The notes under the pieces: generated by a model
The model's database searches: none
Seen by the model: only the letters and a program-made list of their open reading frames with translations
Told to the model about the DNA's origin: nothing
Made by a program: the position numbers and the translations under genes
NCBI GenBank assembly: GCA_027068765.1
Contig: JAMOMC010000172.1
Location: 5,123 to 69,122, forward strand
Length of the DNA stretch: 64,000 bases
Reading direction: 5' to 3'
Source of the DNA: Campylobacterales bacterium
Lineage (GTDB): Bacteria; Campylobacterota; Campylobacteria; Campylobacterales; QNZT01
Shown here: positions 2,045 to 58,187 of the stretch, piece after piece
Position numbering within the stretch: position 1 is the first letter of the stretch
Layout: each line of letters begins with the position of its first letter

Positions 2045-3987
2045 AGTATGTACTAAGAGCATTTATAGCACTTTTTCTTTTGGGAATTATCTCAGTTGTG
2101 ATGGCATTTTTATATTTTTCAAATGAGATAAAGCTAGATGCAGATAAATTAATCTACTACAATCCAGATACAACCACAAGAGTTTATGATAGACATGGCG
2201 AATTAATAGCAAATCTTTTTAATAAAAAGCATAGACTTTATGCCTCTTATGAAGAGATACCACCTAGACTCATTGAAGCTCTTATAGCTATTGAGGATAC
2301 AACTTTTTTTGAGCATAAAGGTGTAAATTATGAGGCGATTTTTAGAGCGGCCATAAAAGATATAAAAGCTATGAGTCTTAAAGAGGGAGCTTCAACATTG
2401 ACTCAACAGCTTATAAAAAACACCATTTTAACTAATGAAAAGAAGTTTAAAAGAAAGATAAATGAAGCGATTTTGGCTTTGAAGTTAGAGGGTGAGCTTA
2501 CAAAAGAGGAGATTTTAGAGAGGTATCTAAATGAGATTTACTTTGGTCATAGATATTATGGGGTTAAAACAGCGGCTCTTGGTTATTTTAGAAAAGAGTT
2601 ACATGAGTTAAATTTAAAAGAGATAGCGATACTTGTTGGGCTTCCAAAGGCACCAAGTACATATGATCCTACAAGACACTTAGATTTGTCACTTAGTCGT
2701 GCAAATACGGTTTTGTTTCGTATGAACTCTATTGGTTGGATTACAGATGAAGAGTATCAAAAGTATGAGCAGTTTCGTCCAAAAATTTATGATGATACTT
2801 TAACAAAAAATAAAACTCCTTATGTGATTGATCAAATTATAAGGGAATTAAGAGCTGAATACCCAGATCTTAGAACTGGTGGTTATGAGATATATACAAC
2901 TATCGATTTGGAGCTTCAAGAGCTTGCTAAAAAGTCACTTTTAGATGGCTATAAAGAGATAATTAAAAGAGGAGAGGGTCAAGAGGTTGATTATAGTGAT
3001 TTAAATGGTGCGATGGTTGTTTTGGAAAATAAAACAGCAGAGGTTTTAGCTCTTGTTGGTGGAGTTGATTATAAGAAAAGCTCTTACAATAGAGCAGTTC
3101 AAAGTATAAGACAACCTGGTTCATCATTTAAGCCATTTATCTATCAAGTAGCTTTAGATGCAGGGTACTCAACTCAGAGTAGATTAACTGATATTTCAAG
3201 AACTTTTAAAGATATAAATCAAGAGGATGAAAAAGAGTGGAGACCCAAAAATTATTCTAAAAATTATGCAGGAGTTTTGAGCCTTCGTCAAGCATTGGTG
3301 CACTCTAGAAACCTTGCTACTATAAATTTAGTAAATGAGTTAGGACTTAGTAGTGTTCATAGGGCGATTAGAAAAATGGGGTTTAAAAATATTCCAGCTG
3401 ATTTGTCTATGTCACTTGGAACTTTTGGTATATCTGTATTGGATTTTAGTGGATTTTATACGATTTTTTCAAATTATGGAAAGAAGTTAGACCCAATTTT
3501 AGTTAAAAAAGTTGTAACGGGGCAGGGTGACGAGAAGAGTTATACTGCAAAAAAAAGTGAAGTTGTATTGCCTTCGCAGAGTTTTTTAACTACATCAATT
3601 TTAAGAGATGTTGTAGTTAAAGGAACAGGCACAAATGCAAAAGTTAAGGGGATTGAGTTAGCTGGAAAAACAGGTACTACAAATGAGTATAAAGATGCAT
3701 GGTTTTGTGGGTATTCTCCACAAATTCAAACTCTTGTATGGTTTGGAAAAGATGACAATCGACCAATGTACAAAGAATCAGGAGGAAAAGCATCAGCACC
3801 TGTGTTTGCATCTTTTTATAGAGAGTATTTAAAGATTCATCCTGAAACTAAAAGAGTATTTGATATACCAAAAAAGGTTAGGGTTGTGAAGGTCAAAAAC
3901 AAGACTGAGTATTTTACAATAATCTCAAAACCACCTAAAAATGGCAGTGAACAAGGAACAACTCCAGAAGATAAGCTTCTATTTTAG
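2041..3987 (+). CDS. Class A penicillin-binding protein (PBP1A, glycosyltransferase + transpeptidase)
   Basis: N-terminal TM helix. GT51 motifs 'EDTTFFEHKGV', 'GASTLTQQL' and 'RKINEA'. Transpeptidase motifs 'SSFKP' (SxxK), 'SRN' and 'KTGTT'. Confidence 0.9.
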   Translation: MKYVLRAFIALFLLGIISVVMAFLYFSNEIKLDADKLIYYNPDTTTRVYDRHGELIANLFNKKHRLYASYEEIPPRLIEALIAIEDTTFFEHKGVNYEAIFRAAIKDIKAMSLKEGASTLTQQLIKNTILTNEKKFKRKINEAILALKLEGELTKEEILERYLNEIYFGHRYYGVKTAALGYFRKELHELNLKEIAILVGLPKAPSTYDPTRHLDLSLSRANTVLFRMNSIGWITDEEYQKYEQFRPKIYDDTLTKNKTPYVIDQIIRELRAEYPDLRTGGYEIYTTIDLELQELAKKSLLDGYKEIIKRGEGQEVDYSDLNGAMVVLENKTAEVLALVGGVDYKKSSYNRAVQSIRQPGSSFKPFIYQVALDAGYSTQSRLTDISRTFKDINQEDEKEWRPKNYSKNYAGVLSLRQALVHSRNLATINLVNELGLSSVHRAIRKMGFKNIPADLSMSLGTFGISVLDFSGFYTIFSNYGKKLDPILVKKVVTGQGDEKSYTAKKSEVVLPSQSFLTTSILRDVVVKGTGTNAKVKGIELAGKTGTTNEYKDAWFCGYSPQIQTLVWFGKDDNRPMYKESGGKASAPVFASFYREYLKIHPETKRVFDIPKKVRVVKVKNKTEYFTIISKPPKNGSEQGTTPEDKLLF

Positions 3988-4995
3988 ATAAAATTCTCTA
4001 TACCAATCTATAAACTTAGAAATTCCTTCTTTGAGAGGAGTTTTTGGTTTATATCCTAAATCATTGATAAGTTCACTTGTATCTGCATAAGTGCTGTAAA
4101 CATCTCCAGGTTGCATATCCATTAGGTTTTTTTGAGCTTTTTTTCCTATTTTTTGCTCTAAAATTTCTATAAAATCCATAAGTCTTATCGGAGTATTATT
4201 CCCAATATTATAAATCTTATATGGAGTTTTATCTGAAGCTGGGTTGTCAATGACTCGTAATACTCCCTCACTTATATCATCAATATAGGTAAAATCTCTC
4301 TCCATTTTTCCGTTGTTAAAAACATTTATAGGCTTGTTTTTTAAAATTGCTCTTGTAAAAAGAAAAGGAGCCATATCAGGTCTGCCCCACGGCCCATAAA
4401 CTGTAAAAAACCGAAGCCCAGTTGTTGAGATATTGTAAAGATGGCTGTAAGTGTGAGCCATGAGTTCATTTGATTTTTTGGTAGCAGCATATAGTGAGAT
4501 TGGGCAAGAGACATCATGTTTGGTGCTAAAGGGTTGCTCTTTATTTAAACCATAGACAGAGGAGCTACTAGCATAGGAGAGTGCTTTTATATCATTTTGT
4601 CTGCAACACTCTAAGATATTCATAAATCCTACGATATTGCTTTGTATATACTCATGAGGATTTTCTAAGGAGTATCTAACACCAGCTTGTGCTGCTAAAT
4701 GGCAAACATCTGTAAAACTCTCTTGTTTAAAAAGTTTCTCCATCTGTTCTCTATCTTCAAGGTTTAATTTTATAAAGCTATACTCTGGATAGATTGAGCT
4801 TTTTATTAATTTTCCATACTCTATATCTTCTTCTTTTATACCTGTATCTTTTAATCTGCCATATTTTAAGGCTACTTCATAGTAGCTATTTATATTATCA
4901 AGTCCGATAACTTCATCACCTCGTTCTAGTAGTTTTTTAGCCAAATTGTGACCGATAAATCCAGCTGTTCCTGTAAGAAGTATCTTTTTAGACAT
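3979..4995 (-). CDS. NAD-dependent nucleotide-sugar epimerase (UDP-glucuronate 4-epimerase-like)
   Basis: Rossmann motif 'GTAGFIGHNL' and SDR catalytic 'YAATK' (YxxxK). It is the last gene of the export operon. Confidence 0.75.
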   Translation of the reverse strand: MSKKILLTGTAGFIGHNLAKKLLERGDEVIGLDNINSYYEVALKYGRLKDTGIKEEDIEYGKLIKSSIYPEYSFIKLNLEDREQMEKLFKQESFTDVCHLAAQAGVRYSLENPHEYIQSNIVGFMNILECCRQNDIKALSYASSSSVYGLNKEQPFSTKHDVSCPISLYAATKKSNELMAHTYSHLYNISTTGLRFFTVYGPWGRPDMAPFLFTRAILKNKPINVFNNGKMERDFTYIDDISEGVLRVIDNPASDKTPYKIYNIGNNTPIRLMDFIEILEQKIGKKAQKNLMDMQPGDVYSTYADTSELINDLGYKPKTPLKEGISKFIDWYREFYLK

Positions 4996-6056
4996 TAGTA
5001 GACTCTTAAAACTGATGTATCAAAACTATAGATAAAACCTATCTTTGCATAACCATACTTTTTTGTATATCTATTTTTTGTATATCTGTTATAAAGATAA
5101 GGTATGACACCGTTAAATTGGTGAAGCATGGCTTTTCCACCGATAAAAACAGTAATCTTATCATTTAGTTTTCTGCTAATTGAGCCTTTAAAGATATGAT
5201 TGTCATCTGTGAGTTTTACATTATCTTCTCTTCCAAATATATTTAGATACTCATATCCACCTTCAAAGAGAAAATCTTGATAATTGTAAACATAGTTAAA
5301 CCCAAAAAAAATGGACTCTTCATCTCTTTTTAAATCTGTTCCTTCAATCTCTACATTAAGTATATCTTGTATGATATTATGTAGTACTATATCACTCTCT
5401 ATAGAAGTTGTTTTTACTCCTGCATAGAGATTTAAAATAGAGTTTTGAAATTCCAAATTTCCAACAGCTCTTATAAAAAAAGATAAATCACTCATATTTG
5501 CAATTTTCATAAAAGGGACTATACCGCCTCTATTTACTATATATAGTGTACTTCCTTTATAAGAGACTCCACCATCTTTAAATACCATAGTTGTGCCTGG
5601 TCTAATCTTTTGTATCATGGAGTTTAAAAATGAGTCATTTTTTAAACTAATATCATCACTGCTATTATGTGTGAAACCAAGGTCAACTGAGAGAGGAAGT
5701 AGAAGATTTTCTATATACGGATTTAAATTTATTTTGCCAAATATTTCATGTTTTTTGTTTTTAAGTTCTGTATCTCCATAATTTATACTTAGATATTCAA
5801 AATTATAGTAGATACTATTGTATGAGTCAATACCGTAACCTAAAGAGATATCTAATCCACTCGCATCTCCAATAGAGCCAACATTTACGCTTCCTAATTC
5901 ACTCTCTTTTATATTAAAAACATCAATTGTATCGTTTATCTTATTGTAATTTAACTTTGTTTTTAACTCTCTTTCATTTAGTAGATTTAAGCCTATTTCA
6001 TTAGCACTAAGAAAACTTATAGTTAGTAATAGAAAAGTAGTTGCTATTTTTTTCAT
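4995..6056 (-). CDS. Outer-membrane beta-barrel protein, paralog 1 (polysaccharide-export associated)
   Basis: Signal peptide 'MKKIATTFLLLTISFLSA', alternating beta-strand pattern, and C-terminal 'GYAKIGFIYSF' with terminal aromatic residues. Clearly homologous to the 6077-7000 product. Confidence 0.6.
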   Translation of the reverse strand: MKKIATTFLLLTISFLSANEIGLNLLNERELKTKLNYNKINDTIDVFNIKESELGSVNVGSIGDASGLDISLGYGIDSYNSIYYNFEYLSINYGDTELKNKKHEIFGKINLNPYIENLLLPLSVDLGFTHNSSDDISLKNDSFLNSMIQKIRPGTTMVFKDGGVSYKGSTLYIVNRGGIVPFMKIANMSDLSFFIRAVGNLEFQNSILNLYAGVKTTSIESDIVLHNIIQDILNVEIEGTDLKRDEESIFFGFNYVYNYQDFLFEGGYEYLNIFGREDNVKLTDDNHIFKGSISRKLNDKITVFIGGKAMLHQFNGVIPYLYNRYTKNRYTKKYGYAKIGFIYSFDTSVLRVY

Positions 6057-6076
6057 AAATTTCCTTTAAAAATATT

Positions 6077-7000
6077 TTAATGATTTGGAAATTTTAGATC
6101 AAAGCTATAAACAAATCCTATATTTGCATATCCAAATTTTGTATCAAACACATTTTTAGTTTTTTCATTGTATAGATATGGGATTATACCGTTGTATTGA
6201 TTAGTATAATATTTACTGCCAATAAAAATTAAAATTTGTCTCGATAAGGCATAAGAGAGAGTTAGATTAAAAACATTGTTACTACTTTCAATATTTTGCA
6301 CACTTCTGTTAAAAAGTCTAATATACTCATATCCACCCTCTATAAGATAATTTCCTAATTCTACGGTATATTGAAATCCTAAATTTAGGGAAGTTTCATT
6401 TCTGTTAAGAGAGAGTAAATCTAGTTTTGTGTTGATATTTGTATATTTTAATCCAAGATAAAAATCTAAAATACTTGCTCTTATTTTTGAACCAGCCAAA
6501 ACTCTTATATAAAATGAGTTATCGCTCAAATCATTCATATTTGAAATTTCTAAATTTGAGCCTGAAATTTTCAAATCATTTGCCCCATTATGTATAAAAC
6601 CTAAATCTGTTGAAAAAGTATCTATAAATGAGCTTGGATTGTGGTAGATGCCAAGTTTTGTAAAAAAGTGCTGTTTTTTATTTTTTAAACTTTCACTTGC
6701 ATAGTCAAGATTTTGATACTCAAAGTTGTAAAAGAGTGATATATATTCAGAAAAACCATAACCAAGGGTAAAGTTAAGACCATTTAAATCTCCAATGCTT
6801 CCATGTCTTGAAGCACTCCCAACATTATCATCTCTTATATTAAAAATATCAAAATTTTTACTAACTACATTGTAGCTTGCACTAATGTTTGCTTTTTGAA
6901 AAGGAAGTACATATGAGCGAATATTTTGTGATGTGGCTTGTACATCTAAAGCCTTTACAAATGAGGCAAATAGAAACAATATTAGCAAAGTTTTAATCAT
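6077..7000 (-). CDS. Outer-membrane beta-barrel protein, paralog 2
   Basis: I place the start at ATG 7000 because it is preceded by GAGGAG and yields the signal peptide 'MIKTLLILFLFASFVKA'. It shares 'SIGD..GL...LGYG', 'YNFEY', 'LKNKK', 'EGGYEY', 'GIIPYLYN' and 'GYANIGFVYSF' blocks with paralog 1. Confidence 0.6.
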   Translation of the reverse strand: MIKTLLILFLFASFVKALDVQATSQNIRSYVLPFQKANISASYNVVSKNFDIFNIRDDNVGSASRHGSIGDLNGLNFTLGYGFSEYISLFYNFEYQNLDYASESLKNKKQHFFTKLGIYHNPSSFIDTFSTDLGFIHNGANDLKISGSNLEISNMNDLSDNSFYIRVLAGSKIRASILDFYLGLKYTNINTKLDLLSLNRNETSLNLGFQYTVELGNYLIEGGYEYIRLFNRSVQNIESSNNVFNLTLSYALSRQILIFIGSKYYTNQYNGIIPYLYNEKTKNVFDTKFGYANIGFVYSFDLKFPNH

Positions 7001-7025
7001 GAAGTTTTCTCCTCTTTTTTGAATC

Positions 7026-7973
7026 TCAAAACGATAACTCACTTTCTCTCTCAGGGGAGCTTCTTATAAATTCTTTAAAGAAGATAAAAAAGATTCCCAA
7101 AATGATAGAAGTTATAAAAGCAACTATAATAATCAAAGCTCTTTTAGGACCTGCTTTATCTTTTATATAGGGTACTTGTGGTTTAGTTAACTGTTTTACC
7201 ATATAGAACTCTCCAGCTTGAGATAGTACCTTTTTTTTCACTAATGCTGAAAGAAGAGAGTTTATATTGTCTCTAAGATCTATATTTTTAGATGCTAAAA
7301 GCTCTTTTTCATAATATGCAACTTGATCATCTAGTTCTTTTAAATCTAATTTTTTGATATAAGTACTCATCTCTAACAGATATATATCTATTAGCTCTTT
7401 TGCTACAAATCTATCTTCAAACTTTGCACTGAGTGTTATAGCACCTGATTCTTTATCCGTTGAAGTTGATAAGATATTTTTTATCTTTAAGTATGTATTG
7501 TATGTTAACTCTTCTTGGTCTATCTCTTTATAAGCATCTGATTTAAAAAAATCGTATATCTCTTTTTTATTTGCAGCAAAGACGAAGTTTTTCTCAATAT
7601 TTTTTAATTTTAGCATCTGGTTGATTTTATATTTTTTAATTATATCTTTATTAAATGAGTAGTTGCCTAGGAGATTTTTAAAAAGTCCGGAGATGTCTAT
7701 ACCTCCACCTCCACCACCTAAGTTTACTCCCGCCATAGCAGCCATAGCAGCTGCTCCACCACTAATATTTGGTTTATCATTCTCTTTTAAGATAAGTACA
7801 GTTGATGATGTATAGACATTTGGTTTTTTAAGTGCATATATAAGAGCAAAAAAAGTTACCAAAAGAGCAATTATTGCAATTGTAAATTTATTTTGCCAAA
7901 TGGTGCTAAATAGCTCTTTTAAATCTATCTCATCTTCTTCAATATAGTTAGCTCTATTATTTATCTCTTGCAT
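7026..7973 (-). CDS. Wzz/polysaccharide co-polymerase (chain-length determinant) family protein, no kinase domain
   Basis: N-terminal 'DEIDLKELFSTIWQNKF' followed by a TM helix, a coiled periplasmic region, and C-terminal 'PKRALIIIVAFI' TM. It also contains a 'GGGGGG' run. Confidence 0.7.
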   Translation of the reverse strand: MQEINNRANYIEEDEIDLKELFSTIWQNKFTIAIIALLVTFFALIYALKKPNVYTSSTVLILKENDKPNISGGAAAMAAMAGVNLGGGGGGIDISGLFKNLLGNYSFNKDIIKKYKINQMLKLKNIEKNFVFAANKKEIYDFFKSDAYKEIDQEELTYNTYLKIKNILSTSTDKESGAITLSAKFEDRFVAKELIDIYLLEMSTYIKKLDLKELDDQVAYYEKELLASKNIDLRDNINSLLSALVKKKVLSQAGEFYMVKQLTKPQVPYIKDKAGPKRALIIIVAFITSIILGIFFIFFKEFIRSSPERESELSF

Positions 7974-50645: not shown

Positions 50646-50895
50646 TATATGTGTCTGATAAGAAGTCACTTAATTTGATGTTGGTGTAAACCAATAGAGT
50701 ATTTTGTTACTTTCTTTCTTCTTATAAGTAATCATTCACAAATTTTATTTAAAATTATAACATTAAAAAATTTGATTTTTTTGATTTTCTTATATTGCTA
50801 TCGAATTTAGCTTATAAACAATATAAACTTGGAAAAACTATTTAACTTTGCAAATAATTGTGATAAAATATTTCATAGATATGCAAGGGAGAAAT

Positions 50896-52551
50896 ATGAC
50901 AAATACAGAAGTTCTACGGTTTATTATCAGTGGATTAGAAAATAGCCCTGATATTATTTGGAAAGGGGATAAGGAGCTTTTTGAGTTGATTTTTGATCCG
51001 ATTCCATATGGGAATGATATTGAAAATAGACAAAAAGAGGCAAAACAATTTATCTTCGATATATTTCAAAATGTTGGCAAGTTTGATAAAGCAAAATTTA
51101 ATAAACTTGTAAAAAATATAATCTCTGGAGGAAGTGAGGAGAGTTGTAGAAAAAAAATAGTAGCCTTTCTTCAAGAAGAGATAACACGACTAGAAATCAT
51201 AACAGATGTAGATATAGAAAAACTTGTTGAAGCACTTCCTTGTAAAGGTGATTTAGATAAAGGGCAAAAAGAGTATATCTATGATATTTTTCAATATGTT
51301 GAAAAGTTTAATAAAACAAAATTTGATCAACTTTCAAAATCTATAACTTGCGGAAAAGATGAAAAGATAGATAAAGAAGTAGTAATAACCTTTTTGCGAG
51401 AAGAGGTAACACGACTAAAAATTATAACAGATGTAGATATAGAAAAACTTGTTGAGTTTATTCCTTGTAAAGATAGTAAAGAAAAAAATTATAAGACATC
51501 ATTTTCAGGTTGGAAAAAAGAGGGAACTATTTCTAGTATAGGTTGTAAAAGAATTAAAAAAGCTCTACAGAAAAATTTTTATTTTGAAAGTGACTTATGG
51601 TCTAAAGGAGATACTTTTATAAAACAAAGATTACAAGAAGGTATAAATAAATTTATAATTGGTCCTCTTCCATTAGATCCTATAACCCCTTCTTTTACAC
51701 AAGAAGAGTTGGATGACTTATTAAATATTAGAGGTATGAAGTTACAAGAAATTAAACAATATCTAGAAGAACACCCTATTTTATCACAAAATTTTGTAGA
51801 AAAATTGATTTATATTTTATATGATAAAGAATACTATGATCTTTTAGTAGATGAAGTATTTAATAAATTTTATAAAGATGATATAGGGATTAAAAAAATA
51901 AAAGCACATGTTTGGGGTAGTGATAAAATAGGTAAATATTTAGAAGCATATTATTTACTTTCTACTATACCTTCAGACGATGATGATGAAATAGTAAATA
52001 TGAAAACTGCGGCAACCTCAAATATGAGACGACATCAGTTAAATGATGCAAAAACAGACAACAATCAAAAAAAAGAGATTATTGAAACGCTAATCTCTGA
52101 TTACAAAGAAACTTTTGAGTCTAAAGATACTTACAACTACTATCCTGGTATAAATTTAGCCTATATGTCAGTGATATCTATAGCTCTTTTTGGCAACGAG
52201 ATAAAACTAGATGATAGTATTTCTACTATTTATAATAAATCAAAAAAATCTATCGATATAGACAAAAAAAATCTTGATACTTCAAAACAATACTATGCAA
52301 ACATAACTACTATCGAGTTTATGCTACTTAACAACATTGAAAGTTTTACTGTTGAATTAGAACAATTTTTGGACTCTAAAGAGCAAACAATAATTATTAA
52401 AGGGCTACTTCAAACAAGGCGACAGATGCAGTTTTTTATCGATACTCTTGCAAGCTCTGGGATTAGTAAAAATCCTATCATCTTAAATATGCAAAAATCA
52501 ATAAAGATAATTGATGACTTTATAGATGGTTTAAAAGAATTTGAAATGTAA
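50896..52551 (+). CDS. Unknown protein A: duplicated novel N-terminal module + DUF4071/TRAF-binding-TPR-like C-terminal domain (tentative)
   Basis: ATG 50896 is preceded by AGGGAG and aligns with the paralog start 'MTN(T/S)EV'. C-terminal motifs 'YNYYPGINLAYM' and 'KQYYANITTIEFMLL'. I recognise no enzymatic motif. Confidence 0.7.
   Translation: MTNTEVLRFIISGLENSPDIIWKGDKELFELIFDPIPYGNDIENRQKEAKQFIFDIFQNVGKFDKAKFNKLVKNIISGGSEESCRKKIVAFLQEEITRLEIITDVDIEKLVEALPCKGDLDKGQKEYIYDIFQYVEKFNKTKFDQLSKSITCGKDEKIDKEVVITFLREEVTRLKIITDVDIEKLVEFIPCKDSKEKNYKTSFSGWKKEGTISSIGCKRIKKALQKNFYFESDLWSKGDTFIKQRLQEGINKFIIGPLPLDPITPSFTQEELDDLLNIRGMKLQEIKQYLEEHPILSQNFVEKLIYILYDKEYYDLLVDEVFNKFYKDDIGIKKIKAHVWGSDKIGKYLEAYYLLSTIPSDDDDEIVNMKTAATSNMRRHQLNDAKTDNNQKKEIIETLISDYKETFESKDTYNYYPGINLAYMSVISIALFGNEIKLDDSISTIYNKSKKSIDIDKKNLDTSKQYYANITTIEFMLLNNIESFTVELEQFLDSKEQTIIIKGLLQTRRQMQFFIDTLASSGISKNPIILNMQKSIKIIDDFIDGLKEFEM
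51031..51471 (+). repeat. Intragenic tandem duplication (~70-aa module x2) inside gene A
   Basis: Unit 1 (51031-51246) 'QKEAKQFIFDIFQNVGKFDKAKFNKL...TRLEIITDVDIEKLVEALPCK'. Unit 2 (51265-51471) 'QKEYIYDIFQYVEKFNKTKFDQL...TRLKIITDVDIEKLVEFIPCK'. The stretch 'ataacagatgtagatatagaaaaacttgttga' is identical in both. Confidence 0.85.
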
Positions 52552-52615
52552 ATCCAAATAATCCAATATAAAAGTGTTATGATAATATCACACAGATAAG
52601 AAATGAGGATAAAAT

Positions 52616-53265
52616 ATGACAAATTCAGAAGTTGTGCAGTTTATTATCAGTAAGTTAGAAAATAGCTCTATCACTTGGAAAGGTGACAAAGAGCTTTTTG
52701 AATTGATTTTTGCTCCAATTCCATATGGGAATGAAATTGAGAAGAGACAAAAAGAGATAAAACGATCTATTTTTGATATCTTTCAAGATATTGATAAGTT
52801 TGATAAAATAAAATTTAATAAACTTGTAAGAGATATAAGCTGTGGAGATCAAAAAAGACATAAAAAACAGATTATAACCTTTTTAGAAGAAGAGATAATA
52901 AGGCTCAAAATCACAACAGATGCAGATATAAAAAAACTTGTTTCCGTTATTCCTTGCAAAAATTCTAAAGAGAAAAACTATAGAACTCAATTTGCACATT
53001 GGAAAAAAAAAGGAGCTACTGTTACTATACATGATAGGAGTATCAAAAATGCTTTGCAGAAAAATTTTTATTTTGAAAGTGACTTATGGTCTATGGAAGA
53101 TGCAGCTATAAAACAAATATTGCAAAAGGGTATAGACACTAGAATTCTATTACTGAATTAGAACTGTTTTTGAAATTTAAGGAGAGGATAATAATTTGCA
53201 TAGAGCTAACAAAACGACAGATGAAGTTTTTTATCGATACTCTTGCAAACTCTGGAATAGGTTGA
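52616..53265 (+). pseudogene. Tandem, internally deleted and frameshifted copy (A') of gene A
   Basis: ORF 52616-53161 parallels the A N-terminus with a single repeat unit, including an identical run 'cagaaaaatttttattttgaaagtgacttatggtcta'. 53158-53265, in a different frame, reads 'LELFLKFKERIIICIELTKRQMKFFIDTLANSGIG*', matching A's C-terminal 'ELEQFLDSKEQTIIIKGLLQTRRQMQFFIDTLASSGIS'. Confidence 0.7.
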
Positions 53266-53303: not shown

Positions 53304-54371
53304 ATGACAAATAATTTCTTTGAAAAACATTCTATTTTAGGGTTACAACCCGAAATCATAAAAAGTGATAAAAGCTATAGTATAGTTCTCTATGGTAACT
53401 CCCCTCTGGCTATAAAGATATTTTATCAACTTGCTATCTTATCAAATCTTCCAAATGAAAACATACTAAATTTATACCTTGTTGATTTGAAAGCTAAGAA
53501 TTTTTATAAAAAATTAAAAAAGCTTTTTAGTGGTATCAAAAAAATAACTCATCTTAATATCATAACTATAGAGTTAGATAGTAAAAATCCCAAATTTTAT
53601 ACCAACAAAATATGGCAAAAAGAGAACTTAACAAATATCATTATTGCAACACAAAATGAAAAGAAAAATTTAAAAATCAAAACAGAGCTCAAAAACTACA
53701 TATCTAGCAAAAAAACTAAAATTTTATTACCTATAGCAAGTCGAACCAATATCAACTCTAAACAAATAGCAAAATTGATTAACTACCTATATCAAGAGAC
53801 AAAATACAACCCAAATCTACTTTTTACACAAAAAGATAAAGATAAAGCAAAAACAATATGGTCAAATAAAATATTATTAAGTGATAAAAAATCAACTAAG
53901 ATGCAAAGTATTCATATAGATACAAAACTATTAACTCTTGGTTTAAAAAAACAAAAAAGCACAAAAACCCCCGAAGAACTTTTAAAAATAAATAAAGAGA
54001 TATTTGATAAAAAATTAGGGTTTAGAGAGATAGATGATCAAAAATTACAAGAGTACTCTCTGAAATTTCAAGATACTAAAAATAACTTTACAGCAATTTA
54101 CTTTCCAAAAGAGTTTAAAAGTCTATTTGAAAAGCTGATAAGAAGTGAACATAACAGATGGAACACTTATCATTATCTAAATGGTTGGAAATATAATAAA
54201 AATAAAAACAAACAACTAAAAGAACACAACTGCTTGATGCCTTTGGAAAAATTTGATAAAGAGTATCTTAAAACTACAGTGATATTTGATATATACTCTA
54301 TAGTTTATATACCAAATTTATTGGCTAGTGTTGGGGTGGAATTAGTTGATATAATGGAAAAAACACTCTAA
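53304..54371 (+). CDS. Unknown protein B: N-terminal Rossmann-like region + C-terminal RyR-like domain (tentative)
   Basis: 'SEHNRWNTYHYLNGWKYNKNKNKQLKEHNCLMPLEKFDKEYLKTTVIFDIYSIVYIPNLLASVG' fits the RyR-domain pattern (H..W......GW.Y......K.H..L.P...L......D...V..IP..L...G). RBS 'AAGGGTAG' lies upstream. Confidence 0.65.
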   Translation: MTNNFFEKHSILGLQPEIIKSDKSYSIVLYGNSPLAIKIFYQLAILSNLPNENILNLYLVDLKAKNFYKKLKKLFSGIKKITHLNIITIELDSKNPKFYTNKIWQKENLTNIIIATQNEKKNLKIKTELKNYISSKKTKILLPIASRTNINSKQIAKLINYLYQETKYNPNLLFTQKDKDKAKTIWSNKILLSDKKSTKMQSIHIDTKLLTLGLKKQKSTKTPEELLKINKEIFDKKLGFREIDDQKLQEYSLKFQDTKNNFTAIYFPKEFKSLFEKLIRSEHNRWNTYHYLNGWKYNKNKNKQLKEHNCLMPLEKFDKEYLKTTVIFDIYSIVYIPNLLASVGVELVDIMEKTL

Positions 54372-54944: not shown

Positions 54945-55024
54945 TTTAAAGGCAACTCCAATAATCAATTAATTATTTAATTATGCTAATATATAATATT
55001 AATTTAATTATTTAAGGGTATAAG

Positions 55025-56368
55025 TTGAAAAATAGAAAAACTATAATCACTTACGGAACATATGATATGCTTCATATTGGTCATCTAAATATACTAAAAC
55101 GAGCAAAAGCTTTAGGAGATTACTTGATAGTTGGAGTTACGGATGAAAATTATGACCGTTCTCGTGGAAAGTTAAATGTTTCGCAAAGTACAAAAAAGAG
55201 AGTAAATGCTATAAAAGAGTTGGATTTTGTTGATGAAGTTATCGTTGAGACTCATAAAAAGCAAAAAGCTATTGATATGATAAAGTACAATGTAGATATA
55301 TTTGCAATTGGGGATGATTGGGTTGGAGCATTTGACTATCTTAATAAATATACACATGTTGAGTATCTTCCTCGCACTGAGGGCATCTCTAGCACAAAGC
55401 TTAGAAATGAGACTTTTAAGCCTATAAAATTAGGAATTTCAGGACTTGGAAAAGAGACAGGATCTTTTATAAATGAAGCAGAGTTTGTCTCAAATATATC
55501 AATTACTAGAATTTATGATGAAGATTTATCTTCAATAAAAGAGTTTACAAAAACTTCAAATATAAAATATGGTCACGATAACTATGATGAGTTTTTAGAT
55601 ACCTCAATCACTGCTGTTTATATAAACTCATCTGTAAAAGAGCACTATACTCAGATAAAAATGGCTCTAGAAGCTGATAAACATGTACTTTGTGAAAATC
55701 CTTTGGCACTTGAAAAAGATGAGTTAAAAGAACTTTTAGCTTTAGCTAAAATAAAGAAAAAAATTCTTCTTTCAGCTTTAAGAACAGCATTTTTACCTGC
55801 ATTTAATCAACTTTTAAAAAAGATAAACAAAGGTGTAATTGGTGATATAAAAGTAGTTCGTGCAAATCGTTCTACACTTTATAAACAAAGAGATTATCCT
55901 GATGAGTTTATGAAACAAGGTGCTACAAATCTACTTTCTAGTTATCCATCTTTGTTGACTCATAAAGTTTTAGGAAAGAGTAAAGATATAAAATTTTTTG
56001 ATCAATTAGAAGAGGATTATGATATAAGTAACACTATAATTACAACTCATAAAAATGGCACTATTGGTATATCTACAATTGCAACAGGAGTAAAATTGGA
56101 AGAGAGTGCTATGATTGCAGGAACAAAAGGTTATATCTATATTCCTTCTCCATGGTGGCTTATGAAAAGTTTCTCACTTGGTTTTGAAGATGAGAGTAAA
56201 AGTGAGAAGTATGAGTATGAGTTTGAGGGATGTGGGCTTCGTTATATGATTGCAGAGTTTAGCTCTTTGATACAAAGAGGAAAGATAAAATCTAAAAAAT
56301 TAAGTGGAGCTGATATGATGAAGATAAATAGAGTAGTATTAAAATATAATGAAAAAGGAGAGAAGTAG
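55025..56368 (+). CDS. Fusion: TagD-like cytidylyltransferase + Gfo/Idh/MocA oxidoreductase
   Basis: N-terminal 'TYGTYDMLHIGHLNIL' (HxGH) and 'RTEGISSTKLR'. The C-terminal half has 'IKLGISGLGK' and 'HVLCENPLAL' (EKP-like motif). TTG start. Confidence 0.75.
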   Translation: MKNRKTIITYGTYDMLHIGHLNILKRAKALGDYLIVGVTDENYDRSRGKLNVSQSTKKRVNAIKELDFVDEVIVETHKKQKAIDMIKYNVDIFAIGDDWVGAFDYLNKYTHVEYLPRTEGISSTKLRNETFKPIKLGISGLGKETGSFINEAEFVSNISITRIYDEDLSSIKEFTKTSNIKYGHDNYDEFLDTSITAVYINSSVKEHYTQIKMALEADKHVLCENPLALEKDELKELLALAKIKKKILLSALRTAFLPAFNQLLKKINKGVIGDIKVVRANRSTLYKQRDYPDEFMKQGATNLLSSYPSLLTHKVLGKSKDIKFFDQLEEDYDISNTIITTHKNGTIGISTIATGVKLEESAMIAGTKGYIYIPSPWWLMKSFSLGFEDESKSEKYEYEFEGCGLRYMIAEFSSLIQRGKIKSKKLSGADMMKINRVVLKYNEKGEK

Positions 56369-57442
56369 ATGATATATGAGGATTATTATATATTTACTCC
56401 AGGACCTGTTAAGATGTCTAAAGAGATTTTAGAGATAGGGGCGAAGCAGACTCCGTATTTTAGAAATAGTGAGTTTTCTGATGTTACTTTTTATTGTGAA
56501 AATTATCTTTTAGAGATGCTGAATGCTCCAAAAAATAGTAGAGTTATATTTTTGACCGCATCTGGGACTGCTGGTATGGAGTCTGTGGTTATGAATTTAC
56601 TAGATGTAGATGATAATGCACTTGTTGTTAATGGCGGAGGTTTTGGTGCTAGATTTGTGGATATTTGTAATTTACACGATATTAATCATTTTAATTTAAA
56701 AGTTAAAGATACAAATCTTAGTGATATTCAAAAGATTGCTCCACAAGAAAAATTTAATTCACTTATAGTTAATGCTCATGAGACGAGTGTTGGACATATT
56801 TATGATTTAGAGGCTATTGGTAAATATTGTAAAAAAAATAATCTTTTATATATTGTAGATGCAATTAGTATGTTTGTAACAGACTCTTTAGATATGCAAA
56901 AAGATAGTATAGATGCAGTAATTGTTAGTAGTCAAAAAGCGTTGGCTCTTCCTCCTGGGCTTACTATGGTTGTGTTATCTCCTAAAGCATTAGAAAAAGT
57001 AAAAGATGTAAAAAGTTTATATTTTAATTTTAAAGATTATCTTAGAGATGGACAAAGAGGTCAAACACCTTATACTCCAGCAGTTACCATAATGCTTCAG
57101 CTTGAAGCTAGGTTAAAACAGATTCAAAAAGATGGAGGAGTTGAAAAAAGTATCAAAAAAGCTAAAAATTTAGCTGAATATTTTCGTCAAAAAATAAAGC
57201 CTTTACCACTTGTAGCCTTTTCCAAGTTTATGCCAAATGCGATGACGACCCTTGCACCAACAGATGGTAAAAGTGCTTTTAAAATAGTAGAAGATTTGGA
57301 GAAAAATTATAAGGTTATGGTCTGTCCAAATGGAGGAGAGTTAAAAGATAAAATTTTTAGAATCTCACATATGGGTGATATGGATGAGGCTTATATAGAT
57401 ATTTTAATAAATGCACTTTTTGACTATTATGAAAACAATTGA
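56369..57442 (+). CDS. Class V (AGXT/PhnW-like) PLP aminotransferase
   Basis: 'IFTPGPVKMS', 'DAISMF' and the PLP-lysine context 'VSSQKALALPPGL'. The start abuts the previous stop. Confidence 0.8.
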   Translation: MIYEDYYIFTPGPVKMSKEILEIGAKQTPYFRNSEFSDVTFYCENYLLEMLNAPKNSRVIFLTASGTAGMESVVMNLLDVDDNALVVNGGGFGARFVDICNLHDINHFNLKVKDTNLSDIQKIAPQEKFNSLIVNAHETSVGHIYDLEAIGKYCKKNNLLYIVDAISMFVTDSLDMQKDSIDAVIVSSQKALALPPGLTMVVLSPKALEKVKDVKSLYFNFKDYLRDGQRGQTPYTPAVTIMLQLEARLKQIQKDGGVEKSIKKAKNLAEYFRQKIKPLPLVAFSKFMPNAMTTLAPTDGKSAFKIVEDLEKNYKVMVCPNGGELKDKIFRISHMGDMDEAYIDILINALFDYYENN

Positions 57443-58187
57443 TGATAAAACTATAAAAAAAGCTCAACTTATCATGCTTGATATGCTGATAGAATTTGAC
57501 AAAATTTGTCAAAAGCATGAGCTTAAATACTGGTTAGATAGTGGTACACTTTTAGGGGCCATCAGACATAATGGTTTTATACCTTGGGATGATGATGTAG
57601 ATATATCTATGCCTGTGAGTGATTATAAAAAGTTTTGTGAAGTTGCAAGTGGTGAGTTAAAAAAAAGTATGTTTTTACAACACACAAAAACAGATAGTAC
57701 ATTTCCTTTTGACTATATGAAGATAAGAGATACTAGAGCTACGATTGTAGAGTTTCATGAAGAGGGTAGGGATATAAAGTACAATCAAGGTCTTTTTTTA
57801 GATATTTTCCCAATGTTAGTTATAAAAGATAGTAAGTTTCATAATTTTATTTATAGATACTCTTTTATGGTTATCAGATTTTTTTCTGCAAAAAAGTTTG
57901 AAAATAGACACATAAGAGGAGTGTTTGTAAATTTACTTCATAAGATGCATCTTGGTTTTTTAAAAAAAGATACAAAGATTATCTATGGCGGTGAGATGCC
58001 AGATGTAGCTGGAAGTTTCTCTTATGATGAGATTTTTCCACTGAAAAGAATAGAGTTTGAAGGTTTAGAGTTTTTAGCTCCAAATAGATGTGAAGATTAT
58101 CTTTTAGAGCTTTATGGTGAGGATTATATGCAATTACCCCCTTTAGAAAAAAGGAGTGTGCATGCAGTAGAGATCAAGATAACCTAA
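57429..58187 (+). CDS. LicD-family phosphotransferase
   Basis: 'YWLDSGTLLGAIRHNGFIPWDDDVDISM' is the LicD signature. An alternative ATG at 57411 is possible. Confidence 0.8.
   Translation: MKTIDDKTIKKAQLIMLDMLIEFDKICQKHELKYWLDSGTLLGAIRHNGFIPWDDDVDISMPVSDYKKFCEVASGELKKSMFLQHTKTDSTFPFDYMKIRDTRATIVEFHEEGRDIKYNQGLFLDIFPMLVIKDSKFHNFIYRYSFMVIRFFSAKKFENRHIRGVFVNLLHKMHLGFLKKDTKIIYGGEMPDVAGSFSYDEIFPLKRIEFEGLEFLAPNRCEDYLLELYGEDYMQLPPLEKRSVHAVEIKIT

Follow-up and report, generated by a model that had tools for sequence, protein, structure and literature searches.

A syntenic cytidylyltransferase fusion, aminotransferase and LicD gene trio in Campylobacterales, with a possible role in adding a phospho-amine head group to glycans

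The gene trio and its conservation

This report concerns three adjacent genes in a 64-kb window (the whole stretch of DNA that was analysed, 64,000 nucleotides) from a contig of a Campylobacterales bacterium. The genes encode a cytidylyltransferase fused to a Gfo/Idh/MocA-fold domain, a class-V aminotransferase and a LicD-family phosphotransferase (Table 1). An earlier sequence-only reading had taken them to activate, oxidise, aminate and transfer a cytidine diphosphate (CDP)-linked polyol, and had described them as abutting or overlapping. This layout was borne out by the coordinates of the open reading frames (ORFs): the TAG stop codon of the fusion gene is followed directly by the ATG of the aminotransferase gene, giving stop/start coupling without a spacer, and the aminotransferase and LicD genes share 32 nt, or 14 nt should LicD begin at its alternative start. 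The domain calls of that reading were also correct (Pfam CTP_transf_like and GFO_IDH_MocA in the fusion, Aminotran_5 and LicD in its partners), and the HIGH and RTEGISST motifs that it reported are present at residues 17–20 and 117–124 of the fusion.

The fusion gene probably starts at TTG 55025, and the public gene call, which begins at ATG 55067 and gives 433 residues, is then too short. The TTG is preferred because, on reading the sequence, an AAGGG ribosome-binding site lies 7 nt 5′ of it, and because the public call drops the conserved N-terminal strand ITYGTYD, which is common to all homologues. Fusion homologues align from about residue 5 onward.

Table 1. Positions of the trio, its domains and altered motifs, and its leader in the window
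Feature	Position	Strand	Remarks
AT-rich intergenic leader, probable trio promoter region	54945-55024	+	AAGGG 7 nt before TTG
Cytidylyltransferase-Gfo/Idh/MocA fusion gene	55025-56368	+	ORF of 447 residues, TTG start
Cytidylyltransferase domain, TagD/ECT family, residues 1-130	55025-55414	+	PF01467
Gfo/Idh/MocA-fold domain, residues 134-447	55424-56368	+	PF01408; GISGLG kept
CENP motif	55691-55702	+	In place of EKP
QGATNLLSSYP motif	55916-55948	+	In place of GGx3(D/E)x3Y
Class-V aminotransferase gene	56369-57442	+	ORF of 357 residues
Class-V (AGXT/PhnW-like) pyridoxal phosphate aminotransferase	56369-57442	+	PF00266; PDB 3f0h subfamily
LicD gene	57411-58187	+	ORF of 258 residues; alternative start 57429
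LicD-family phosphotransferase	57411-58187	+	PF04991; acidic metal motif DDDVD, residues 60-64

The cytidylyltransferase domain was matched by CTP_transf_like (PF01467) over residues 8–128 (E 2e-18) and by the solved TagD structure, PDB 1coz, at E 8e-35. It carries HIGH, DFVDEVI and RTEGISST motifs, of which the first and last align to TagD; the roles of these motifs in TagD have been described (PMC8262930). With TagD and TarD it shares the HxGH and RTxGISTT motifs. TagD K44 and K46, the lysines in contact with the CDP-glycerol phosphates, align to R47 and K49, which are also basic but stand in a different loop. It differs from TagD in this loop, which reads YDRSRGKLN throughout the fusion family and FNLQKQKKAY in TagD, in the second domain fused to it, and in its score against the TIGR01518 equivalog model, which at 121.2 bits falls below the cut-off of 165.4. 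All members of the fusion family scored 121–133 bits against this model.

The aminotransferase was matched by Aminotran_5 (PF00266) at E 1.5e-22 (80.5 bits against a cut-off of 21.5). Its pyridoxal phosphate (PLP) residues are intact, namely the SSQK lysine at residue 190, the IVDAIS aspartate and the FRISHMG arginine. Among solved structures, PDB 3f0h is the nearest (E 4e-91); its deposited title is 'Aminotransferase' alone. Besides the source organism of 3f0h, the subfamily is represented in vent Campylobacterales, tubeworm-type symbionts, Ruminococcus and Fusobacterium. In the same searches, a class-V aminotransferase-like domain was seen at residues 197–471 of PDB 9os7 chain A (555 residues, titled 'Methionine--tRNA ligase'; E 3e-26 to the window enzyme), and the deposited name may not cover the whole protein. 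An aminotransferase and cytidylyltransferase pair from B. finegoldii, which has no oxidoreductase, was considered as support and dropped, as its cytidylyltransferase has an ECT-like HYKG loop and its aminotransferase is 37% identical.

LicD was matched by PF04991 at E 8e-42 (144 bits against a cut-off of 22.6). Its closest NCBIfam model was the Mf1 family (83 bits, below the cut-off), and the solved structure of FKRP was matched at 6e-07. No obvious membrane segment was seen in the translation, and all three proteins look soluble by reading of their sequences. Relatives of the trio lie in glycan loci. Plasmid pRUMAL01 of Ruminococcus albus 7 carries the order LicD–aminotransferase–fusion–LicD–GNAT–LicD within a Wzy/flippase polysaccharide locus. 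Fusobacterium vincentii has an O-antigen-ligase-like gene, LicD, an aminotransferase (47% identical), a LicC-like nucleotidyltransferase and a metallophosphoesterase, and a Sulfurovum locus (L012) has the fusion, the aminotransferase and a hexapeptide acyltransferase. These contexts support a role in surface glycans; together with what is known of the family, they suggest that LicD would move a phospho-alcohol from a CDP donor to a glycan hydroxyl. An N-acetyltransferase thus adjoins the aminotransferase in some aminotransferase-linked relatives, as GNAT in R. albus and as the hexapeptide acyltransferase in L012, and this fits an amine product.

The order of the three genes is strictly kept. 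Among 80 metagenomic loci, fusion, aminotransferase and LicD follow one another on one strand in 65, and the other 15 end at a contig end; the order is therefore found in 65/65 loci with enough downstream sequence. The same order and strand were found in nine genome loci and in two further loci, L074 and L076, and most loci from the genome scan keep either this order or LicD–fusion–aminotransferase. The scan found the fusion in Campylobacterales (Sulfurovum-like), Thiotrichaceae, Cocleimonas, an alphaproteobacterial metagenome-assembled genome, Psychrobacter and Bacteroidales, and the trio is also present in gammaproteobacterial symbionts. The fusion is by no means rare, its homologues numbering in the thousands. 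In Ca. Reidiella endopervernicosa and on another complete contig, the trio is set among unrelated housekeeping genes. The two genes on each side of the trio in the metagenomic loci gave 207 ORFs, which fell into 145 clusters, and no recurrent glycan gene was found among them. The arrangement of the three genes is far beyond chance, and its strictness supports the earlier view that they act as one unit. Strict synteny, together with unrelated flanking genes, indicates that the trio appears to be an autonomous, self-sufficient and horizontally mobile cassette.

Motifs of the Gfo/Idh/MocA-fold domain and their genomic company

The second half of the fusion was matched by GFO_IDH_MocA (PF01408) over residues 136–249 (E 4e-15, 57 bits against a cut-off of 24), with a weak match to the C-terminal domain. 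The Rossmann GxGxxG motif is retained as GISGLG. The Gfo/Idh/MocA fold is predicted with confidence: the AlphaFold model had a mean pLDDT of 82.6, and Foldseek gave TM scores of 0.87 to 3e9m and 0.84 to KijD10, a nucleotide-sugar ketoreductase. The canonical catalytic residues are replaced. HMMER alignments to 2o48, 3e9m and 3evn place N225 at the position of the EKP lysine, and Asn occupies this position in 106 of 114 close homologues. The acid of GGx3(D/E)x3Y is a leucine, and the tyrosine is kept (QGATNLLSSY) but is moderately conserved.

The loss of motifs extends through the family. When 55 representatives of 50%-identity clusters were compared, seven kept all three oxidoreductase motifs and 38 kept none, while the cytidylyltransferase half was conserved. 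The 38, among representatives P0121–P0270, are without the Rossmann glycines, the EKP lysine and the GGx3Dx3Y motif. On this comparison, the Gfo/Idh/MocA-like half of the fusion family looks often non-catalytic, like a pseudo-dehydrogenase retained for another role.

The state of the motifs was then set against the neighbouring genes. Both canonical motifs (EKP and GGx3Ex3Y) were present in 112 of 118 Firmicute-type relatives. Canonical EKP was also seen in every multidomain protein checked in which the fusion is joined to GDPD, metallophosphoesterase, LicD or a second cytidylyltransferase domain, with the exception of P0255, which the motif scan could not score. No class-V aminotransferase was found in seven canonical-motif loci (L013, L015 and L160–L164, the last five looked up individually), where the partners were LicD, TagF-like, GDPD and Metallophos genes. 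In all aminotransferase-linked loci, the fusion beside the class-V aminotransferase is of the non-lysine form, the motif reading ESP in R. albus. An ENP-type fusion was also found once without any aminotransferase, in a TagF-type cluster, L009. A 606-residue protein (L009:4513–6330) stands there in the place of the aminotransferase; it had no Pfam or NCBIfam match, and is a partly duplicated, divergent TagF-like relative, related to weakly TagF-like proteins of L013, L015 and L020. A metagenome scan with an alignment of the oxidoreductase domain returned close relatives only, and the comparison of motifs with aminotransferase linkage was not widened by it.

As L009 has no aminotransferase, an obligatory keto-producing oxidase would be a dead end in that cluster. 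The pattern of motifs and contexts is hard to reconcile, at the level of sequence, with the domain as an oxidase that feeds the aminotransferase. The oxidation step of the sequence-only reading was thus not borne out: the EKP lysine is Asn and the GGx3(D/E)x3Y acid is Leu, the relatives that keep the canonical motifs have no adjoining class-V aminotransferase, and an ENP-type fusion occurs where there is no aminotransferase at all. Pathway logic based on domains can mislead where catalytic residues go unchecked.

EKP units fused or adjacent to metallophosphoesterase, GDPD and LicD were noted in their own right (P0127, P0129, P0130, P0132, P0248 and P0257; L164:5618–10011). These proteins reach 1240 residues, and the recurring multidomain set is possibly a machine for glycerol-phosphate supply and activation.

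A possible route to a phospho-amino-alcohol head group

The general idea of the sequence-only reading, a CDP-activated head group that gains an amine and is moved by LicD, stands as the best reading of the locus. We give a probability of about 0.4 to the following form of it. The trio would be an autonomous cassette in which the class-V aminotransferase aminates a ketone at the level of dihydroxyacetone phosphate (DHAP), giving CDP-serinol or a close isomer, and LicD decorates a glycan with it; the Gfo/Idh/MocA-fold domain would not be the oxidant. This form builds on the observed domain identities, motif changes, strict synteny, variable context and paralogy with AepZ (below).

In the ancestral canonical form, a DHAP-level ketone would be reduced and CDP-activated, and then passed to LicD or TagF-like transferases. 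In the form found in the window, the reductase chemistry would be off, and the class-V aminotransferase would transaminate the same ketone that relatives without an aminotransferase reduce. The ketone would be free DHAP before cytidylylation, or CDP-dihydroxyacetone after it, and the product would be CDP-serinol (CDP-2-amino-1,3-propanediol) or a close isomer. On the cytoplasmic side, LicD would place the phospho-amino-alcohol on a glycan intermediate, for which the lipooligosaccharide (LOS) or lipopolysaccharide (LPS) core and an undecaprenyl-linked sugar chain are possible candidates. The outcome would be a zwitterionic phospho-amine decoration. The Gfo/Idh/MocA-fold domain is probably retained as a scaffold for the cytidylyltransferase, and would serve in nucleotide or ligand binding or in oligomerisation. 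We infer the order of steps, as we do the substrate, the product and the acceptor; there are precedents for either order, with CDP-ribitol synthase reducing first and Campylobacter jejuni HS5.18/HS5.17 activating fructose-6-phosphate first (PMC10918830).

The cytidylyltransferase domain was compared between fusions with and without a linked aminotransferase. Its identity to that of canonical-motif fusions without an aminotransferase was 75–79%, the same as to equally distant aminotransferase-linked fusions. Eight columns were specific to one class or the other, all of them in the oxidoreductase domain and none in the cytidylyltransferase domain. Either the cytidylyltransferase may have the same substrate in both classes, fitting a ketone such as DHAP that is activated first, or it may not discriminate OH from NH3+ at one position. 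PCYT2, a member of the same cytidylyltransferase family, takes both phosphoethanolamine and glycerol-3-phosphate (PMC8587909).

Several points weigh against this reading. The ENP and QGATN segments are among the best-conserved parts of the oxidoreductase domain, and this conservation argues that the site still acts, possibly in non-canonical redox chemistry. The canonical-motif locus L162 has a class I/II aminotransferase-fold gene together with GNAT, and it appears from this case that an active oxidoreductase can coexist with a PLP enzyme. Class-V aminotransferases are not known to act on nucleotide-linked substrates, which weakens the variant with CDP-dihydroxyacetone. The link to glycerol consists of the similarity to TagD, below the equivalog cut-off, and of GDPD fusions found in the EKP class only; the carbon skeleton may be C3 or that of a longer ketose phosphate. 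Finally, no acceptor or glycosyltransferase is linked to the cassette. The more specific proposal, that the head group is phosphoserinol or an isomeric C3 amino-alcohol phosphate and arose by a 'reductase-to-transaminase swap', in which a redox-dead CDP-glycerol-type synthase recruited an AepZ-like paralogue, is tentative and somewhat doubtful.

The scheme of the sequence-only reading keeps the oxidation. Glycerol-3-phosphate would be converted to CDP-glycerol, oxidised by the Gfo/Idh/MocA domain to a CDP-linked ketone or aldehyde, aminated by the aminotransferase and transferred by LicD. In the standard amino-sugar pathways (WbpB/WbpE/WbpD, NtdC/NtdA), a Gfo/Idh/MocA dehydrogenase is paired with an aminotransferase and optionally with an N-acetyltransferase, and the acetyltransferases beside the aminotransferase in L012 and R. 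albus complete this likeness. The domain also conserves its fold, its Rossmann motif and the residues that line the active site, and since the same cytidylyltransferase domain occurs with or without the aminotransferase, the latter could act after activation. Against this stand the Asn and Leu replacements in 106 of 114 close homologues, at a lysine that the KijD10 K102 mutants in PDB mark as a mutagenesis target, and the genomic company described above, in which the canonical form was not found with a class-V aminotransferase and the ENP form occurs without one in L009. We consider this scheme improbable.

A second alternative applies the same logic to a longer ketose phosphate, and is also judged to have a low probability. 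A pentulose or hexulose phosphate would give a CDP-activated 2-amino-2-deoxy-alditol. A cytidylyltransferase–reductase fusion with LicD is the design of CDP-ribitol systems such as the E. coli O118/O151 locus, a cytidylyltransferase is known to make CDP-6-fructose (PMC10918830), and the window enzyme has a substrate loop of its own and scores under the threshold of the TagD equivalog model. Nevertheless, this enzyme is far closer to TagD than to other solved enzymes, and glycerol phosphate is suggested by the GDPD fusions. When E. coli genomes were searched for distant DNA matches, the sole result was a short LicD match within the ribitol-phosphate locus of O118/O151.

The product might also be a lipid head group or a soluble phosphodiester (osmolyte), made by a stand-alone cassette in vent and symbiont bacteria. 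Such a non-glycan product would agree with the lack of a glycan gene linked to the cassette in Campylobacterales, and with the NCBIfam model closest to LicD, which describes a Mycoplasma glycolipid phosphocholine transferase. Against it stand the aminotransferase and fusion genes of R. albus, Fusobacterium and L012/L019, which lie inside polysaccharide or LOS loci (Wzy, WaaL-like, flippase, glycosyltransferase). All characterised LicD-family enzymes known to us act on glycans or glycolipids, which also counts against it, and we regard a non-glycan product as very unlikely.

The remaining question was whether the aminotransferase makes 2-aminoethylphosphonate (AEP). Its best NCBIfam match was PhnW-AepZ (TIGR03301), at 177 bits against a cut-off of 361, and TIGR02326 gave 120 bits against 401. 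The EDKx5NS signature of phosphoenolpyruvate (PEP) mutase was searched for in approximately 2.1 Mb over 159 loci and in the 64-kb window. It was absent from the window and from every cassette-bearing locus, and was detected in the positive control, a Fulvitalea locus with annotated aepX and aepY. In an uncultured Campylobacterales cluster (L019), the gene for a phosphonopyruvate-decarboxylase-like thiamine pyrophosphate enzyme precedes one for a 489-residue fusion of a TagD-like cytidylyltransferase with a true AepZ, which scored 404 bits, over the cut-off. The cluster additionally holds an orthologous pair of the window's fusion and aminotransferase, the latter scoring 160 bits. Because both are present in this cluster, the window aminotransferase and the true AepZ are, on sequence grounds, paralogues with different jobs. 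The L019 fusion itself (L019:86–2625, contig CAZFNK010000006.1) appears to be an AEP-activating enzyme whose nucleotidyltransferase family is unlike that of the published, LicC-like PntC.

Standard AEP decoration, in which PEP mutase and phosphonopyruvate decarboxylase are encoded elsewhere, the aminotransferase makes AEP, the cytidylyltransferase converts it to CMP-AEP and LicD installs it, would be in keeping with the best NCBIfam match, with a LicD relative (37% identity) beside aepX/aepY in Fulvitalea, with the AepZ fusion of L019 and with the known nucleotidyl activation of AEP for LicD (PMC6697681), but the sub-threshold score, the missing mutase motif and the two non-redundant paralogues in L019 make it very unlikely, and the sequence-only reading had disfavoured it too.

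If a phospho-amine head group of this kind is indeed made, it would explain a gene trio that is unannotated yet very common, and would give a function to the orphan solved structure 3f0h. The small zwitterionic phospho-substituents of bacterial glycans, among them phosphocholine, phosphoethanolamine and AEP, have strong effects on immune recognition, resistance to cationic peptides and phage adsorption. The modification would be widespread, including in gut and oral commensals, and the cassette would offer a portable tool for glyco-engineering, in which a new zwitterionic head group is made from central metabolites.

The surroundings of the trio were unrelated to it. Upstream lie genes for a RyR-domain protein and a CysG-N-like protein; downstream, on the convergent strand, are genes for an unknown protein, an OmpA-like protein, a TPR protein, SerS and TrpS. 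A promoter would lie upstream of the trio, judging from the 80-nt gap alone: a promoter and terminator scan, in which consensus promoters were not enriched over shuffles, was uninformative. The GC content of the window is approximately 30%. The minus strand carries, at 3979–7973 and thus some 47 kb away from the cassette, genes for an NAD-dependent epimerase/dehydratase and a Wzz chain-length determinant and two ORFs without Pfam match, which belong to a polysaccharide locus. The epimerase and the Wzz regulator show that a regulated polysaccharide is made by the organism, and the locus is a possible source of acceptor glycan. At 50848–53161, two adjacent ORFs of 567 and 181 residues have in common an N-terminal module of approximately 110 residues, with the pattern …EV(L/V)(R/Q)FIIS.LENS…WKGDKELFELIF.PIPYGN(D/E)IE.RQKE…. 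The 567-residue ORF contains two copies of it, and the gene for the RyR-domain protein follows at 53304–54371.

Comparison with known systems

The transaminases Cj1437 of C. jejuni and RtxA of Bradyrhizobium belong to an aminotransferase class other than that of the window enzyme. They provide a precedent in that DHAP is transaminated to serinol phosphate for a surface glycan, which in C. jejuni is the capsule (PMC12096443 and related papers). In that route, serinol is dephosphorylated and amide-linked to glucuronate, and is neither CDP-activated nor linked by a phosphodiester.

With the Lic and Pnt systems (LicC–LicD for phosphocholine; PntC–AEPT–LicD for AEP), the proposed pathway would share the CTP-dependent activation of a small phospho or phosphono compound, followed by LicD transfer to a glycan (PMC6697681). 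An AGXT/PhnW-type aminotransferase makes the amine in the Pnt system, as the class-V enzyme would here. The activating enzyme is of the TagD/ECT type in the window and of the LicC type in Lic and Pnt, and the cassette differs further in an aminotransferase that scores below the AepZ cut-off, in the absence of a PEP mutase or decarboxylase nearby, and in the extra Gfo/Idh/MocA-fold domain.

The CDP-ribitol (Bcs1/TarIJ) and CDP-6-glucitol (C. jejuni HS5.18/HS5.17) systems have in common with the window a cytidylyltransferase fused to or paired with an NAD(P)H oxidoreductase, and start from a ketose phosphate (PMC10918830). A LicD transferase is often next to the CDP-alditol synthases, for example in the E. 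coli O118/O151 locus. These synthases combine an IspD/NTP-transferase domain with a short-chain or medium-chain dehydrogenase/reductase (SDR or MDR), in contrast to the TagD-like and Gfo/Idh/MocA domains of the window, whose trio has gained an aminotransferase and no longer has the redox residues.

In the pneumococcal CDP-2-glycerol pathway, Gtp1, Gtp2 and Gtp3 are annotated as dehydrogenase, nucleotidyl transferase and phosphotransferase (PMC3493582). This set has no aminotransferase and resembles the canonical-motif fusions that occur with LicD and without an aminotransferase, the likeness being one of annotation only. No named pneumococcal protein was among the results of a protein search that took a Firmicute stand-alone oxidoreductase as its seed; going by product names only, Gtp1–3 may be the characterised counterpart of the canonical-motif form.

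The sequence-only reading did not know the fusion or the pathway as characterised, and our literature search agreed with it, finding, among the papers searched, none on CDP-serinol or this fusion and no report of CDP-serinol or phosphoserinol on glycans. The design falls within the family of systems that join a CDP- or CMP-linked head group to LicD, alongside Lic, Pnt and CDP-ribitol with LicD, and is an uncharacterised and widely distributed variant of them.

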